From positions 1-10,381 of the IMG/VR virus record IMGVR_UViG_2531839265_000011: a stretch of 10,381 bases of DNA. One strand, 5' to 3'. This DNA is from a virus. Its lineage: Duplodnaviria > Heunggongvirae > Uroviricota > Caudoviricetes. Position numbers and translations under genes: made by a program. Numbering within the stretch: position 1 is the stretch's first letter; every line of letters starts with the position of its first letter. Shown in pieces: positions 1 to 9,069 of the stretch. Under the pieces are notes generated by a model. The model was not told where the DNA came from. It ran no database searches and saw only the letters and a list, made by a program, of their open reading frames with translations.

Positions 1-573
1 TTAGCAAATACCAAATGCTCGAATAGAACTCAAATCATCTAGGTTATTCAGTTCTTCCTTCATCTCCCGCTGACGCCGATAAATCTCATCGTTGCGATCG
101 ACCTGAGCCTGCGCCATTGCAGTAAGCAGCTCATCCAGTTTCTGCATCGACAGTTTCACCTGCTGGTTTTCCGCATCGCCCCATACCATGGTTTTTCGCG
201 CTGTGTCAGACTTTGATGCCATTACTGCCGGATAAAGACGAGCCATTGAGTCGGGGCCAGCGTTCCAGGTGCGACCGTTCCATTCGAACGTGAACGGCAG
301 TGCCTCCTGTTCTGTGCGCCATGCCTCGATTTCCCGCTTTTTGGCATCCTTCGCCGCGGCGATAAGTTCCGGCGTGACGGTGAACGGGGCGATTTCACCC
401 CATTTGCCGCTCTGCAACTCTTCCCAGATGCGTTGGCCTGTCGGGGCGGTATCATCTTGCATGGCGGTATACGGGACGAATTCCCTTTCACCTTCAAATA
501 ACACCTCGCAGTCAACCGCACCATTTTCGAGATAATGGGCGTTTCTGATGCCCTTTACCGCTCTGATTTTCAT
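1..573 (-). CDS. putative tail fibre assembly/chaperone-like protein paired with the second side tail fibre
   Basis: 190-aa ORF; ATG at 573-571 with AAGGAG 7 nt upstream; starts 14 nt after the TAA of the 654-aa fibre gene, the canonical position of a fibre chaperone; stop TAA at 3-1. Lacks the canonical Tfa C-terminal WP..P motif seen in the other Tfa (8518..9069), so the call is mainly positional. Confidence 0.5.
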   Translation of the reverse strand: MKIRAVKGIRNAHYLENGAVDCEVLFEGEREFVPYTAMQDDTAPTGQRIWEELQSGKWGEIAPFTVTPELIAAAKDAKKREIEAWRTEQEALPFTFEWNGRTWNAGPDSMARLYPAVMASKSDTARKTMVWGDAENQQVKLSMQKLDELLTAMAQAQVDRNDEIYRRQREMKEELNNLDDLSSIRAFGIC

Positions 574-587
574 GTTCTATCTCCTTG

Positions 588-2552
588 TTACTCAATGCGC
601 ACGAACAAACAGATAAAGCCTCTGTCGCCATACGTTCCACGATAACCTGACAGGGCCTGATAACGACCGGGAAAACTGAATGCACCAGCACCCCCCGCCT
701 TTACTGAAGGTGTGGAAACATATGTCCCGGAATTATTAATTGCACAGTCGATAGCCACAGGACCAAGTCGCGACCCCGCCACTACATCCCCAAGGCCAAT
801 TTTTATTTCCTTATCTCCTGCCGCTGTTCCCTGATAGACCGCGAGAATAAGAGAGCCAACTGCCGGATATTTGTAATATGAGGACGGGCCGTTGCCCGCC
901 GTCCGGGACAGCAGGAAGGCCAGCGAATCGCTGTCGTAAATGACGGGGCTTACTGTTGCATTCCAGTTATTTTCACTCCAGCGATAAGTCAGGCGATGAA
1001 TACTATGTTCGCCTTCGTAATACTGGTTAAAACACAGCAGCATTTTGAATTTGCGCGTTGTGTCTGATTCATCGTTATCAAAGGGCGACCACATCACATC
1101 AATAATGCCGTTAAATTTTGTGGTGCCAATCAGTAGCGAGGAAGAGTCCACAATACTGACCGCATAACGCCCCGGCGTGGCCTCTTTCAGCCATTCAGCA
1201 AAATCGGCCTGCCCGTTAAATGCCAGGGCTTCGGTGCTGGTAAATGCCTGACCGAATCCGTACATGCCGGACAGTGCCAGTCTGCCTGGTGTGCGGTCGC
1301 GGATATCGCTCTGGGGTTCCATCGTCGCAGCCGCTTTCAGTTCAAGCTCCGTGCGCATGGCCTCAGACGTGTCCAGCGCCAGTAATGCGCGGGCTTTTTC
1401 TGACAGCTGCGCCAGTAAAATCCGGCCCTCTGCACTGAAATAAGGCAGTGTGTTTTCTTCCGGTGTTATCTGGCTGACAGCCGTTAACACGTCATTAAGC
1501 GGCTGTTTACCTGCCAGTGCTTTAGTGACGGTTGTCGCAAAGTTCGGGTCATTACCCAGCGCCGCTGCCAGCTCGTTCAGCGTGTCGAGGGCTTCCGGTG
1601 ATGAGTCAACCAGCGCGGCGAGCAGTTTGCGGACAAATGCCGCGTTCGCGGTTTCCAGACCGACTGCATCGTCCGGTGGGGTTGGTGTGGTTGGCGTACC
1701 CGTGAACGCCGGGCTGTCCAGCGGCGCTTTTGTTTTCGTCTCGTCCATGACGGCTTTGACAGCCTTTGGTGTGGCGGCCAGTTCTTCGCTGTCGTTGTCT
1801 GTATCACTACAGAGTTGCACCAGGCCTTTTTGCGTCGTGCTGGCGCTGGTTCCTTTCAGGTCATCGACTATCCGTTGCGCCTCGTCCCTGTGCTGTTTCG
1901 CGTTCTGCTCGCTTTTTGCTGCTGCTTCGGCGCTGGCCTTTGCCTCGCCGGTCAGCGTTGCGGCTTCACCGAGTTTATCGACCGCTTTCTGGACTATCGT
2001 GTCAGCATCTTTGACCGCCTGTTCTGCGCGGGCCGCATCCTGTGTGGCAGATGACGCCAGTAACGCCACCTGCTTTTTGTCTTCGGCAACGGCTTCTGCG
2101 TTCTGCTGTACGTTATCCGCCAGCGTCTCGCAGTCGCTTTTAATTTGTTGCGCATCAGCGACATGTTTCCCGGCCTGTCGTTCGCTTTCCGCTGCCGCTT
2201 CCGCGCTCTGCTGCGCCTGCGCCACCATTTCCTCAAAGCGTTTCACTACATCCGGCTTTAAATCGCCTTCATCAAGGGCGGTCAGAAAGTCGTTCAGTGT
2301 GCCGGGCTTTGAATCGTCGTAAACCGAAATATCACCAACACAATATTCTCTTTCAATACATGACCGGAGATAAACGTCATATCTTCCGGTCTGGGCCTCA
2401 AATGCATATTCTCCTGCCGCCCCTGTCACTACTGTTGCCACCGTTCTCATGACCACTGCGGATGTATTCTGTCGGGCTTTCAGAATAATATGGTATCCGG
2501 ACATGGGGAGTCCCGTGCCATCCGTCAGCACACCCGAAATTAATACAGACAT
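588..2552 (-). CDS. side tail fibre protein, mosaic (Stf-type N-terminal domain, Ala-rich coiled coil, P2-H/Stf-type shaft motifs, distinct C-terminal domain)
   Basis: 654-aa ORF; ATG 2552-2550 with AGGA about 7 nt upstream. N-terminus MSVLISGVLTDGTG...ILKARQNTS...PGTLNDFL resembles the N-terminal domain of lambdoid prophage side tail fibres as I recall it; long Ala/Gln/Glu-rich coiled-coil region; central KGLVQL...ELAATPKAVKAVMDETKTKAPLDSPAFTGTPTTPTP...ALVDSSPEALDTLNELAAALGNDPNFATT block typical of P2 H / Stf fibres. Confidence 0.85.
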   Translation of the reverse strand: MSVLISGVLTDGTGLPMSGYHIILKARQNTSAVVMRTVATVVTGAAGEYAFEAQTGRYDVYLRSCIEREYCVGDISVYDDSKPGTLNDFLTALDEGDLKPDVVKRFEEMVAQAQQSAEAAAESERQAGKHVADAQQIKSDCETLADNVQQNAEAVAEDKKQVALLASSATQDAARAEQAVKDADTIVQKAVDKLGEAATLTGEAKASAEAAAKSEQNAKQHRDEAQRIVDDLKGTSASTTQKGLVQLCSDTDNDSEELAATPKAVKAVMDETKTKAPLDSPAFTGTPTTPTPPDDAVGLETANAAFVRKLLAALVDSSPEALDTLNELAAALGNDPNFATTVTKALAGKQPLNDVLTAVSQITPEENTLPYFSAEGRILLAQLSEKARALLALDTSEAMRTELELKAAATMEPQSDIRDRTPGRLALSGMYGFGQAFTSTEALAFNGQADFAEWLKEATPGRYAVSIVDSSSLLIGTTKFNGIIDVMWSPFDNDESDTTRKFKMLLCFNQYYEGEHSIHRLTYRWSENNWNATVSPVIYDSDSLAFLLSRTAGNGPSSYYKYPAVGSLILAVYQGTAAGDKEIKIGLGDVVAGSRLGPVAIDCAINNSGTYVSTPSVKAGGAGAFSFPGRYQALSGYRGTYGDRGFICLFVRIE

Positions 2553-4343: not shown

Positions 4344-5994
4344 CCCCAGAATGCATCGCCATCGGTCATGCGGGAACGCTGACCAAAATGAATATCTCCC
4401 AGATTTTTCGTTACCCTGTCAGCCAGTTGTCCGGCATCCTCGCCAGGCTTCTGAGTGATGTTAAATTCCGCCCGTATCTGATATGTGGGTTTTACTTCCA
4501 CCTGGCTGACACTGCCGGGGGTATACTGAAGAGCCGAGAGAGGATCCGAATTACCCTGCCCCTGAACTGCTGCAGGAAGTCCGTCAATATAGGTGCGGGA
4601 TTTCTCTTTTATCGCCTTAAAATCAGGTTCTTCTTTCGGCCCCAGCAGAGGGTCGAGAAATGCATCAAACTTTTTATCGTCATGATTCCAGGGGAGATAA
4701 CCGCGGGTGTCTTTATAGGCCTGTACAACCTGTTTTGTCAGGTCAGGATTTTGCCTGAGCAGTTCATCAAACCATTCACCCTGACCGTTTTTCTGCGCCA
4801 CTGCTCTCGCCAGCTCCGGCGACCCCATTTTTGCCAGATACTCCAGCACTTCCCGTCGGTCCTCTCGCGGATCATCCGCCAGCCCCCACTCAATGGCTTT
4901 TTGTGTAATTCCGGCAAGAACTTTTCCAAATTTCCACATCCAGGCAGCCATGTCGATCAGCGCCGGCAGGGCATCATCACGAATAAATGCCCGGATTTTT
5001 TTCCAGCCCACCATTCTTAAACCAGGCCGCAAGGTCATCCGTCACCTGTTGAATATGTGGGGCAAGTTCATTACCCAGCTGTCCGCTGATTTCATCAATG
5101 GAAGAACTCAGAACATTACGGAGATTTGACAGTGCCACATGTCCCTGAACTGCGCCATCAGCCCCTGCCTTTGTCACCAGGTTATAGCGTTTCTGCTCAC
5201 TGATAAGCTCCCGGTAAGTTTTCCCTGACAGACGCATCCAGGTCAGAATTTTATTGGCCTCACCACCGAACAACGCATCTGCCATTCCGGCAGCCACCTG
5301 TTCATTCTCCACCTGCAGTAAGCGATCAAATAAAAATTCGACCTGCTCCTGGTTGCTTTTCCCTGTCATCACCCCGGCTTTCAGTCCCAGTTTGCCAAAG
5401 ACCTCCTGAATGGCCCCTTTATCCGTGGCACCATTATCATCGTCAAAAACCTTGTTCCGGTACTCCTCAAACAGATCACCGATGTTTTCACCGTTCAGCC
5501 CCATCAGTCGGGCCAGAGAATCCCATGACGCATAGGTTTCATAATCCACCCCATAACTGCGGGCTATCCCTGCCCGCTCTGCCGTCTCCGTATTCCGGTT
5601 AAGCACAGCGGCAGTGCCCGCTGCCAGCGTCAACCCGGAACCAACCGAAAGCCCAAAACCGGTTTTAAGGACCGTCCCCGCCCGCCCTTTCCAGCGTTCC
5701 AGGCGTTCCGCGCGCGCCAGTTTACGGTTAAATTTGTCCTGCTCTCCGGTGGCATCATGAATTTTTTTACCCAGCTTTTCATACTGCTTTCGCAGATCAG
5801 TAATATCCTGTCCAGCCAGTACGCCAGCCTGAATTTTTCGTTTCAGTACGTCCTGCTGGCGTGTCAGGCGAGCCACTTCCTGTGTTGCCCCTGATAATCC
5901 GTGCTTCAGTCCATCAACCGATTTTTTTCCACGACGGATCTATCGTGCCTCCGATCCGGATATTCGCTTTAAGGTTATCGCCCACCGTTGCCAT
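4340..5994 (-). CDS. tail tape measure protein, reading frame interrupted twice at A7 runs (frameshifted gene or homopolymer sequencing error)
   Basis: Position directly after the E/E' chaperone; strong RBS (AGAGGAAG, 9-nt spacer) before ATG 5994-5992; three consecutive open segments (5994-5917, 5939-4980, 5041-4343) in different frames joined by single-nt shifts at A7 runs 5922-5928 and 4996-5002; Gly/Ala-rich hydrophobic stretch GFGLSVGSGLTLAAGTAAV typical of tape measure proteins; conceptual product about 548 aa. Confidence 0.6.
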
Positions 5995-6420
5995 AACGTT
6001 GCTTCCTCTCTTCCGACTCCGCCAGCATCATTGCCACAAAATCCGTATACGGCAGCGCCATCACATCTCCGGGAGACCACCCGAACCAGGCACCGGCACG
6101 CCGTATCGCTGTCAGGATGCTTTCTTCTTCCGCCGGACCGGCGGCAGCAAAAAAACATTAAACTGACGCTCCAGGGCCAGGTAATCACACGCTTCCATGT
6201 TCATCATGTCTGCCGCGTCCATCCCACACAGACCGGCAATCATATCCAGATCAGCCTCTGCTTCCGGTTTGTTACTCCGGCGATGCAACAGACGATCGCG
6301 GACAGTGGGCGCACGCATAGTGACGTGCGTGATCGTCTGTCCTGATGCGGTGACATACGGCACGGATAACACAATTTCCACGCTGCTGGCAGGAACGCTG
6401 TTTTTTTCCGACATAAGCAT
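5975..6420 (-). CDS. tail assembly chaperone E+E' fusion produced by programmed -1 ribosomal frameshift
   Basis: After a -1 slip at T_TTT_TTG (6154-6148) the -1 frame stays open for 57 codons (FFAAAGPAEEESILTAIRRAGAWFGWSPGDVMALPYTDFVAMMLAESEERKQRYGNGGR) to TAA 5977-5975, ending just inside the start of the tape measure gene; this is the standard E/E' (G/GT-type) arrangement. Confidence 0.6.
6112..6420 (-). CDS. tail assembly chaperone, gpE-like
   Basis: 102-aa ORF between tube and tape measure; AAGGAG at 6426-6421; first ATG at 6420-6418 is too close to the SD, so ATG 6414-6412 (6-nt spacer) is the likelier start; contains the T_TTT_TTG slippery heptamer 12 codons before its stop, as in P2 E. 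Confidence 0.75.
   Translation of the reverse strand: MLMSEKNSVPASSVEIVLSVPYVTASGQTITHVTMRAPTVRDRLLHRRSNKPEAEADLDMIAGLCGMDAADMMNMEACDYLALERQFNVFLLPPVRRKKKAS
6148..6154 (-). other. -1 programmed ribosomal frameshift slippery heptamer T_TTT_TTG
   Basis: Minus-strand sequence GTT TTT TTG in the E frame; heptamer X_XXY_YYZ with X=T, Y=T, Z=G, identical in form to the P2 E/E' site. Confidence 0.6.
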
Positions 6421-6427
6421 CTCCTTT

Positions 6428-6455
6428 AAAAAAGAAAAGGCGGCCTGAGCCGCCT
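6428..6455 (-). terminator. intrinsic (rho-independent) terminator between tube and chaperone E genes
   Basis: On the minus strand: AGGCGGC-TCAG-GCCGCCT (perfect 7-bp GC-rich stem, 4-nt loop; 6455-6438) followed by TTTCTTTTTT (6437-6428), then the RBS of E. Lies 19 nt after the tube stop. Confidence 0.6.
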
Positions 6456-6473: not shown

Positions 6474-6968
6474 TTAAACCCGGATGATTTTTTTCAGATC
6501 CGCCAGAACATTAACGCCATTAATACGACGTACAAACTCCTCCGGAATAATGCAGATGGTTTCCACACCGTCGACAGCCTGGCGGTAATAACTCAGCGAC
6601 ATTTCCACCGTCACCGAGGCGTCTGCCTGCGATGTTGCCGGACGTGCATCCGGCGTGATACTGGTGATCATCCCCTGCAGGGTTTCCACCTGTCCGCTGG
6701 TCGCATTCCCCACCTGATAGCCCTGGCGGACAACAATCTCCGGCGAATAAAGCCCGGCCTGTAATCCCAGCAGCGTCAGCATGGCAACATCATAGCCATA
6801 AATCTTAAACGAACAGGTCAGCGCTTCCATGCCGTCATCCACTGCCACCGGTGCATCCATTGCGCCGGTTTTGATATCCACTGTCGTGATATTAATGGCT
6901 GGCGGCGTGTATTCATGCGCCCCCTGAAGGCGGATCCCGCCAGGAAGAAATAACGCCCATGCGCGCAA
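6474..6968 (-). CDS. tail tube protein (FII-like)
   Basis: 164-aa ORF directly after the sheath gene; C-terminal MSLSYYRQAVDGVETICIIPEEFVRRINGVNVLADL resembles the conserved C-terminal region of P2-type tube proteins as I recall them. The in-frame ORF has no ATG (only TTG at 6968-6966); a strongly RBS-backed ATG at 6991-6989 lies in another frame (see findings). Confidence 0.75.
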   Translation of the reverse strand: MRAWALFLPGGIRLQGAHEYTPPAINITTVDIKTGAMDAPVAVDDGMEALTCSFKIYGYDVAMLTLLGLQAGLYSPEIVVRQGYQVGNATSGQVETLQGMITSITPDARPATSQADASVTVEMSLSYYRQAVDGVETICIIPEEFVRRINGVNVLADLKKIIRV

Positions 6969-6987
6969 CAGTTTTTTTCACCCGTCA

Positions 6988-8463
6988 TCATACTGTCAGT
7001 TCCTCCAGCGCCAGTTTATTGTTAATCATTGCCCGCAGTGTCAGGCGCTCCAGTGGTGACTTCGGCCCAAAGTCATAATCAATATACAACTGCCCTGCCG
7101 CCAGGGTTTCTGCAGTGTTCAGTTCATCGTTCAGCCATGCACTGCCACCGTGGATCGCGCCCAGATTTTTAAGCTGACGCATATAGGCATTAATGCTGCC
7201 AAGAATGTCGTCTGCCACATCCCGATCAAGCGGGCGATCGACATAAGGCAGCATGGCCTCCTGGATGCTGTCCTCAATCACATCTGCAGTGCGGCGTACC
7301 GGCTCAAAACGCCACTGACTGTGGGATGTGCACAGACGGTTACCCCAGTGTTTAAAACCGTCATGGCGAATAATGGTGGAGATATTTTCCATGTTCAGCA
7401 GGTTTGCCGTGCAGTTCTGCTCCCCGAGAATAAACGTATCCACCTGCTCCAGACCGGTGATATTCATCACGTCCTGGTTTGATTTGGACCACCACCACCC
7501 TTTTTCGTAATCAATACGGGCACGCAGCCCGGCAGCACGAGCCGAATATGGACGAAATATCGTTTGCCCGCTGTCATCCGTCACTGACACGCGCGGACGC
7601 AGCAGCTCCACACGCCCACCAAATGACGCGCGCCGCTGAACCACATCCTGCGGTGTTGCCATTGAGGGCGAGTCAATATAGGCCACAGCCCGCAGCTTCG
7701 CGGCATACGTTTCCAGCGCCTTTGCCACGCCATCATCCTCACTGTACCCCGTGGCGATGAGGATGCGCGGTTGATAGCCTGTCACGCCCTTACTTTCTGT
7801 CAGCGCCTCCATGGCCTGAATCACCGCCGCACGCTGTTCGGCCTCTTTCGCCTTTGTTTTACTTTCTGCGCGCACCACAATCACCAGCGCCCCAGTCTGG
7901 TCAAAAATATCTCGCAGGGCCGGGTATAATGTTCCGGCTGTGCCCAGTTTCCCGGCCTGAGTAATGGCCCCTGCCACCACCACTGGTGTATTGACCGGGA
8001 ACGCCTCATCTTCTCCGCCGGATAACGTCAGGCTGAACGGCAACACCACTTTATTTTCAGCGTCTCCTGCATTCAGGGTGCTGACAGCCGCCGTCACAGG
8101 CGAATCCCCCAGCGCATTCACCACTTCAGTCACACGGTCCGCCGTGGCGTTAACCTGGCTGTGTTCGTCCGTCCCCAGTGTTATCGTCAGGGTCGTACCT
8201 TTCAGCGAGGCCACTGTCTGCGCATTTTGTTCTGTGGCAGCCACAGCAACAACCGAAATCTTATTACCGGCCCGACCTTCCTGTTTCGCCGTGAAATCCA
8301 GCGCCGTTCCCAGCAGCCAGGAGCCGGCTGTGCCGGAAGCGCACACACCACCAGAGGCGTCCGGCGCTGTCCCCACCAGGCCAATCACTGCCGTGGAGAT
8401 GGTCTGCACGGCAACCGTGCCTGTCGTCAGTTCAATGGTTTCAACACCATGTAATCCGGACAT
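6988..8463 (-). CDS. tail sheath protein (FI-like)
   Basis: 491-aa ORF; ATG 8463-8461 with GGGAGA 5 nt upstream; N-terminus MSGLHGVETIELTTGTVAVQTISTAVIGLVGTAPDA, central PRILIATGYSEDDGVAKALETYAAKLRAVAYI, GWWWSKSNQ, IRHDGFKHWGNR and C-terminal AETLAAGQLYIDYDFGPKSPLERLTLRAMI blocks match the conserved segments of P2 FI-type sheath proteins from memory. Confidence 0.9.
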   Translation of the reverse strand: MSGLHGVETIELTTGTVAVQTISTAVIGLVGTAPDASGGVCASGTAGSWLLGTALDFTAKQEGRAGNKISVVAVAATEQNAQTVASLKGTTLTITLGTDEHSQVNATADRVTEVVNALGDSPVTAAVSTLNAGDAENKVVLPFSLTLSGGEDEAFPVNTPVVVAGAITQAGKLGTAGTLYPALRDIFDQTGALVIVVRAESKTKAKEAEQRAAVIQAMEALTESKGVTGYQPRILIATGYSEDDGVAKALETYAAKLRAVAYIDSPSMATPQDVVQRRASFGGRVELLRPRVSVTDDSGQTIFRPYSARAAGLRARIDYEKGWWWSKSNQDVMNITGLEQVDTFILGEQNCTANLLNMENISTIIRHDGFKHWGNRLCTSHSQWRFEPVRRTADVIEDSIQEAMLPYVDRPLDRDVADDILGSINAYMRQLKNLGAIHGGSAWLNDELNTAETLAAGQLYIDYDFGPKSPLERLTLRAMINNKLALEELTV

Positions 8464-8517: not shown

Positions 8518-9069
8518 TCAGGTATTTTGTGGCTGCTCAGGCCAGCTAATATTGTTGTATGTGGTCTTATCCGTAATAGCGCTGAAATCCATCGCCTGCA
8601 GCGATTTCGCGTAAATGCGGTACGCTTTCAGCTTCTCCCTGTCTTCGTCACTGATTAATCCCGGCAGCAGGTCTTTTTCCCATTCGCTGGTCATGATGCT
8701 GACCTGTTTTAACAGAGCATCGCGCTCATCTTCCGCTTTAAGTTTGTAGTCGAAGACAAATTTATCGTCGCGGTAAAACCAGTAACCAGGCACGGTTATA
8801 CGGCGATTAGCGGTAATATCAGGAACTTCAATAACACTGGCGTTACGGGGTTCAATGCCTGTCACATCCTTACCGACCCACACCACGCGCCCGTCTCCGG
8901 TGTAAACCATTTTTATGGTGTCACTGGCAAAATTCTTCTGTTCTTCATACCAGTTTTTGTCATCTTCCGAAAAAAGCCAGGTGATACCATGTTGTTTTGT
9001 CATCTGATATTGTTCTGCGGTTTTCGGATTGCCCGCAGTAATATTTTTAAATGCAACATTGTTAAACAC
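8518..9069 (-). CDS. tail fibre assembly protein (Tfa, gpG-like)
   Basis: 183-aa ORF starting (GTG 9069-9067) 8 nt inside the end of the upstream fibre gene; C-terminus ...TTYNNISWPEQPQNT carries the W-P-x-x-P ending characteristic of Tfa chaperones; position immediately downstream of a fibre gene. Confidence 0.8.
   Translation of the reverse strand: MFNNVAFKNITAGNPKTAEQYQMTKQHGITWLFSEDDKNWYEEQKNFASDTIKMVYTGDGRVVWVGKDVTGIEPRNASVIEVPDITANRRITVPGYWFYRDDKFVFDYKLKAEDERDALLKQVSIMTSEWEKDLLPGLISDEDREKLKAYRIYAKSLQAMDFSAITDKTTYNNISWPEQPQNT

Follow-up and report, generated by a model that had tools for sequence, protein, structure and literature searches.

An adenine run one base short at the tail tube start of a P2-type Escherichia coli prophage, probably reflecting homopolymer miscalling in a draft assembly

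Phage P2 provides the closest known system for the locus considered here. The sheath and tube pair of P2, FI and FII, belongs to a tail module in which the chaperone gene bears a -1 frameshift site (E/E+E'), and in Citrobacter phage Chris1 the sheath and tube genes meet in an ATGA overlap. A different kind of precedent is IS1, where the heptamer A_AAA_AAC is a proven -1 frameshift site (PMC4066793). IS1 is described as a low-efficiency case, and bacterial ribosomes tolerate the shift from AAC to AAA poorly (PMC4066793). In a survey of E. coli, background frameshifting was about 0.05%, and motifs lacking a stimulator reached only 2.1-10 times this background (PMC4066793). E. coli genes contain fewer long runs of A and T than expected, in part because such runs are prone to slippage (PMC4066793). 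Homopolymer length errors in draft assemblies, from flow-based or long-read sequencing, are a third point of comparison.

The DNA analysed here, a single stretch of 10,381 nucleotides referred to as the window, carries a contractile tail module of the standard P2 type. Here a run of seven adenines separates the reading frame of the tube gene from its expected ATG. This break at the start of the tube gene is almost certainly not biology and not a real feature of the phage.

Layout of the tail module and the tube start

The genes of the module are arranged in the order tail-collar fibre, tail-fibre assembly, sheath, tube, tail chaperone (Pfam Phage_TAC_7), tape measure, gpU, gpX, gpD, a second fibre gene and a DUF4376 gene (coordinates of the main features are given in Table 1). 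The tube gene thus lies directly downstream of the contractile sheath gene, and the identical sheath protein in other assemblies matches Pfam Phage_sheath_1 and Phage_sheath_1C.

Read from the window on the minus strand, the tube start has the context ...CTGGAGGAACTGACAGTATGATGACGGGTGAAAAAAACTGTTGCGCGCATGG..., in which a spacer of 9 nt (7000-6992) separates GGAGGA from the ATG. The tube frame is closed upstream by TGA 6980-6978, and its translation across the break reads as a stop followed by KKLLRAWALFLPGG..., so that the ORF list contains a tube ORF of 164 aa starting at TTG (6474-6968). Translation from the ATG gives MMTGEKNCC... in the A7 version and stops after 57 codons, and this short ORF is a by-product of the missing base. 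The initial annotation had located the ribosome-binding site, the ATG, the sheath stop, the A7 run, the TGA and the TTG, and all of these positions are correct on the minus strand. Its observation that the ATG overlaps the sheath stop and that the tube lies in another frame is borne out by the ORF list and the translation. It had also described the TTG as preceded by a weak ribosome-binding site. The TTG is indeed the only in-frame start, yet by our own reading of the sequence GGTGA (6983-6979) lies 10 nt before it and matches part of the extended Shine-Dalgarno sequence, so that the TTG does not entirely lack a ribosome-binding site.

Table 1. Features of the tail module in the window, in coordinates of the window
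Feature	Position	Strand	Basis or remark
Break in the tail-fibre assembly gene, A6 to A5	9044..9048	-	Four codons after ATG 9059-9057; A6 in all relatives
Tail sheath gene, 491 aa	6988..8463	-	ORF list; stop TGA 6990-6988
Shine-Dalgarno GGAGGA	7001..7006	-	Sequence; 9 nt upstream of the tube ATG; invariant in five aligned relatives
ATG, probable true tube start	6989..6991	-	Overlaps the sheath stop TGA 6990-6988 as ATGATGA/ATGA; NCBI automatic annotation of A8 relatives starts here
A7 run, A8 to A7 (L018 against the window)	6972..6978	-	A8 in nearly all relatives; the missing base parts the ATG from the tube frame
Out-of-frame ORF opened by the ATG in the A7 version, 57 codons	6818..6991	-	ORF list, translation
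TTG	6966..6968	-	No other in-frame start remains with A7; corresponds to Leu9 of the 172-aa protein
Tail tube gene (P2 FII type), 172 aa with the run restored to A8	6474..6991	-	Pfam PF04985 Phage_tube
Chaperone -1 frameshift site T_TTT_TTG	6148-6154	-	In register with the chaperone ORF 6112-6414; conserved
First tape-measure break, A6 to A7	5922..5928	-	A6 in relatives
Second tape-measure break, A6 to A7	4996..5002	-	A6 in relatives

The heptamer T_TTT_TTG in the chaperone gene is a genuine programmed -1 site of the P2-type chaperone, and it is the only programmed recoding site that can be supported in the window. From this heptamer the -1 frame is open for 57 more codons, to about position 5977, and overlaps the tape-measure ATG (5994-5992).

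Two further elements of the module vary among relatives. A GC-rich hairpin resembling a terminator, AGGCGGCTCAGGCCGCCT, lies between the tube and chaperone genes, with a T-rich tract after it (6438-6455, minus strand). The tract differs in length between relatives, and the hairpin may serve for attenuation inside the tail operon. Downstream of gpD (1-2552, minus strand) a second fibre set consists of a 654-aa protein (phage_tail_N, Phage_fiber_2) and a 190-aa DUF4376 protein, thus the prophage carries two fibre systems. This end of the window is mosaic among relatives.

Run length and tube protein in related prophages

Comparisons with complete E. coli genomes show that the run is nearly always one base longer than in the window. 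A stretch of 901 bp across the junction matches 75 records at 80-99.9% identity, and in the best matches the sole difference is one extra base. Alignment with relatives places this single difference in the run itself, A8 against A7 in the window, in agreement with the original suggestion that one A is missing. With a probe of 81 nt, 49 of 50 complete E. coli genome records are one base longer than the window across the junction, corresponding to A8, and only TUM9812 has the length of the window. In STEC316, O8:H8 16F5M1D1 and A10, NCBI automatic annotation gives a tube gene of 519 nt with an ATG overlapping the sheath stop. A pattern scan permitting A6 to A9 found the A8 length in all five metagenome contigs, and the same kind of scan gave no match among contigs representing one genome per species. 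A DNA search of a phage collection was also without a match, and this type of prophage has no relative there at the DNA level. Among the loci selected for closer comparison, A8 was found at L005-L010 and L017-L019, and the six loci that carry an identical sheath protein all have A8 together with a 172-aa tube.

The A8 version encodes a protein of 172 aa, MMTGEKKLLRAW..., which is the same as the tube of the window downstream of the run. The N-terminus proposed in the initial annotation, MMTGEKKLLRAWALFLPGG..., is exactly the one found in the A8 relatives, beginning at the ATG that overlaps the sheath stop. The repaired 172-aa protein is recorded in exactly this form on 745 contigs. Look-up of the 164-aa TTG product of the window returned no exact record, and the gene caller applied to the source scaffold gave a product of 128 aa rather than the 164-aa one.

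Pfam PF04985 (Phage_tube) matches the repaired tube with E = 1.9e-23 and 83.5 bits (cut-off 22.4), and residues 9-170 align to positions 4-164 of the 165 positions in the profile, which is almost its full length. Since the TTG codon is residue 9 and the match begins at profile position 4, three positions of the profile lie upstream of the TTG. The closest tube protein in the phage collection is 48% identical. With distant phage tube proteins (25-48% identity) the alignment begins at query residues 5-7 in most cases and at residue 1 in some, and the tube of Citrobacter phage Chris1 reads M-S-D-K-N-T-L-R-V-W from an ATG overlapping the sheath stop, the same ATGA arrangement. These alignments upstream of the TTG, together with the overlap in Chris1, indicate that the coupled ATG and not the TTG is the native start. 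The TTG was rejected as a native start because homologues reach 6-8 residues further upstream and begin at the ATG that overlaps the sheath stop. It had been proposed that the N-termini of homologues should decide between the two codons. They favour the coupled ATG, with a TTG start in one genome only, that of TUM9812, which also has A7; there the TTG start is a call of automatic annotation only.

In TUM9812 (NZ_CP128926.1; L004/L020) the tube gene has the A7 run and is annotated as the 164-aa TTG-start protein WP_252378060.1 (L020 9323). Two accessions are on record for this 164-aa tube, which is present on 2 contigs, whereas the 172-aa form is on 745. The nearest relatives that were fetched to judge the A7 run of TUM9812 are about 4% diverged from it. 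The prophage in TUM9812 also has an insertion of the IS66 family (ISCro1) in the side tail-fibre gene (L020 13742-16789).

Homopolymer indels in the source scaffold

Look-up of the side tail-fibre protein (654 aa) led to four places, L016, L017, L018 and L019. Read as its reverse complement, the window is contained without a single difference in L016, which is scaffold JH594577.1 of the draft E. coli assembly GCA_000243195.1. A literature search on the assembly and scaffold accession gave no match. L017 (a metagenome scaffold), L018 (GCA_040045675.1, E. coli) and L019 (GCA_012858745.2) share with L016 both the prophage and its chromosomal site. Judging from their Pfam content and the E. coli K-12 map, we take the host neighbours to be potB, potA, pepT, roxA, phoQ, phoP, purB, hflD and mnmA.

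Over 10.4 kb, L018 differs from the window by two substitutions and four single-base indels; every one of the four indels falls in a homopolymer and disrupts a tail gene. L017 and L019 side with L018 at all four indel sites. L010 (GCA_015176185.1), the nearest of the relatives reached by way of the sheath protein, has two substitutions over 5 kb and exactly the three A-run indels that this comparison covers. The two breaks in the tape-measure gene, with A6 in relatives and A7 in the window at 5928 and 5002, are opposite in sign to the break in the tube gene, as had been noted at the outset.

In the tail-fibre assembly gene (Pfam Caudo_TAP) the frame is lost after codon 4, at a run that is A6 in L005, L008 and L017-L019, and the ORF finder reports a 183-aa ORF with a GTG start (8518-9069) in place of the gene with its ATG start. 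Across this junction none of 109 complete E. coli genomes (0/109) matches the window exactly and no record reaches 99% identity; all 40 of the matches listed from these 109 genomes are one base longer than the window.

The same kind of difference continues into the chromosome. The host DNA of L016 has three further homopolymer indels (L016 15562, 18928 and 18944) that are private when compared with L017, L018 and L019. In pepT a T4 run has become T5, and the gene is called as two products of 182 and 237 aa rather than one of 408 aa. At its start, phoQ lacks one base at each of two sites 16 nt apart, and the gene is called with 453 aa rather than 486 aa. All seven indels in 19.8 kb are thus within homopolymers and private to L016 in comparison with L017, L018 and L019. 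A census of L016 against L018 shows that the length differs in 6 of 30 runs of at least 6 nt (20%) but in only 1 of 262 runs of 4-5 nt (about 0.4%). No indels were found outside homopolymers between these two loci, although runs of at least 4 nt make up only 6.6% of the bases.

The pattern therefore consists of several single-base indels, found in homopolymers only and in one assembly, with host genes included, as in a homopolymer artefact of assembly. The steep dependence on run length, the occurrence in both directions, the private character of the changes, the fact that housekeeping genes are hit equally and the excess of indels over substitutions in the prophage form a signature of miscalling rather than of evolution. 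The cause is accordingly likely to be base calling or assembly and not mutation, and the A7 run at 6972-6978 is with high probability a length miscall in the draft assembly, the real run most likely being A8. Low-coverage sequencing by flow-based or similar chemistry would be expected to give errors of this pattern, and the run is one of at least seven miscalls of this kind in 20 kb. Extrapolated to the whole genome, the same rate would leave well over a thousand genes frameshifted, which would not be viable. The initial annotation had preferred homopolymer noise or slippage to a programmed event. This preference is supported, and the seven private homopolymer indels in 19.8 kb of the source scaffold, including those in host pepT and phoQ, narrow it further toward noise.

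If the run is restored to A8, the tube in the real DNA would start at ATG 6991-6989, served by GGAGGA, and give a protein of 172 aa. The ATGA overlap would couple its translation to that of the sheath gene, as an ordinary tube gene of the P2-FII type, so the actual biology would be that of an ordinary, intact P2-type tail module. All homopolymer-associated breaks in the window share the same cause. The long homopolymers of the source draft must be treated with caution, with about one fifth of the runs of at least 6 nt wrong in length, and frameshifts, missing starts and split genes at A or T runs in the window should for this reason be discounted. This includes both breaks in the tape measure and the start of the tail-fibre assembly gene.

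Other irregularities of assembly were seen in this family of prophages. The right edge of the window (10381, corresponding to L016 2172) lies directly after a scaffold gap of 69 N in JH594577.1, where L018 has just 17 bases, G-rich and within the tail-collar fibre gene. The gap therefore divides this gene artificially, and the source assembly has it as two parts of 30 aa and 439 aa. In L009 (GCA_030346515.1) the tape measure is split into 191 and 366 aa by a single-base indel outside homopolymers, at a position matching 5427 in the window, and the call of the baseplate J gene is also shortened. L009 is thus a second example of frameshifts at the level of assembly in the prophage family.

Alternative explanations and comparison with known systems

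Two considerations speak against a miscall. In principle, a strain deficient in mismatch repair could truly carry all seven discrepancies, and a change from A8 to A7 can apparently exist in deposited genomes of high quality, as the complete genome of TUM9812 has A7.

A real one-base deletion, produced by slippage during replication, either in a defective prophage undergoing decay or in a mutator lineage, is an unlikely, minor alternative. The tube would then be a pseudogene, or its expression from TTG 6968-6966 would be poor and depend on ribosomes that re-initiate once past the sheath stop. An A8 run is intrinsically a hot spot for slippage, and this A tract may be a natural one. TUM9812 shares the A7 allele, and the IS66-family insertion in its side tail-fibre gene suggests that decay is real there. 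Expression from the TTG is made more plausible by the GGTGA 10 nt upstream and by the acceptance of the TTG start in automatic annotation. However, the window prophage differs from its nearest relative by more indels than substitutions, four against two, and all four indels are private and in homopolymers. The same scaffold shows the same defect in pepT and phoQ, both conserved host genes, with the two deletions 16 nt apart among the cases, and no other sign of decay (IS element, deletion or nonsense codon) is present anywhere in the 10.4 kb.

It is considerably less probable that the A7 run is both real and recurrent, arising in the window strain and in TUM9812, so that the A8 tract would be a slippage-prone off switch for tails. 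Residual tube would in that case be made by an IS1-like -1 shift, by transcriptional slippage or, in truncated form, by re-initiation at the TTG. The frequencies are not those of a phase-variable locus: A7 occurs in 1 of 50 complete genomes, and the surveyed loci span the lengths A7 or A8 only.

The least probable explanation is that A7 is functional in itself. Translation would start at the coupled ATG, and full-length tube would be produced by a -1 shift on A_AAA_AAC (6977-6971) or through the addition of an A by RNA polymerase; in a variant of this proposal, the run would be a phase-variable switch that turns tail production on and off. By our own reading, the heptamer, of the X_XXY_YYZ type, is properly phased with the ATG frame, and slipping back by one base leads precisely into the tube frame. 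The heptamer is also the one proven in IS1, and the A7 allele is found in two unrelated assemblies. The register carries no independent weight, because it follows automatically from the deletion of one A in an in-frame A8 run. The arrangement in two frames is not conserved, as a single ORF is found in 49 of 50 complete genomes, in all five metagenome contigs and in all near-identical prophages. A stimulatory structure is not supported either, since the 82 nt downstream fold no better than shuffled controls (z = 0.21), and no element resembling a Shine-Dalgarno sequence was seen 10-14 nt upstream of the heptamer. The efficiency reported for motifs of this kind is far too low for the tube, which is needed in roughly as many copies as the sheath. 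Moreover, the same kind of break is found in other genes of the window (both tape-measure sites and the tail-fibre assembly gene) and in two host genes. Programmed -1 frameshifting on A_AAA_AAC is therefore very unlikely and was rejected on account of the lack of conservation, the lack of a stimulator and the low intrinsic efficiency.

A homopolymer miscall in the source assembly thus remains the preferred explanation, and the locus compares with described systems as follows. With IS1 insA-insB' (PMC4066793) the window shares the heptamer A_AAA_AAC, its register and a downstream ORF in the -1 frame. Unlike in IS1, the arrangement in the window is unconserved, with single ORFs in the relatives, and nearby genes are similarly broken. 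The products also differ, as that of IS1 is a rare transposase, whereas the tube is a main structural component of which many copies are required. There is also a likeness to homopolymer errors of draft assemblies from flow-based or long-read sequencing. The changes are of a single base, restricted to homopolymers, of both signs (+1 and -1), private and spread over host and prophage genes, and the source scaffold has a gap of N over a short G-rich stretch; here we infer the cause from the pattern in GCA_000243195.1. The prophage resembles the FI/FII sheath-tube pair of phage P2 in the order of the module, with a chaperone bearing a -1 frameshift site, and in a tube that matches PF04985, and it has the same ATGA overlap of sheath and tube as Citrobacter phage Chris1. 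The only difference from P2 FI/FII is the A run that is one base shorter in the assembly of the window.
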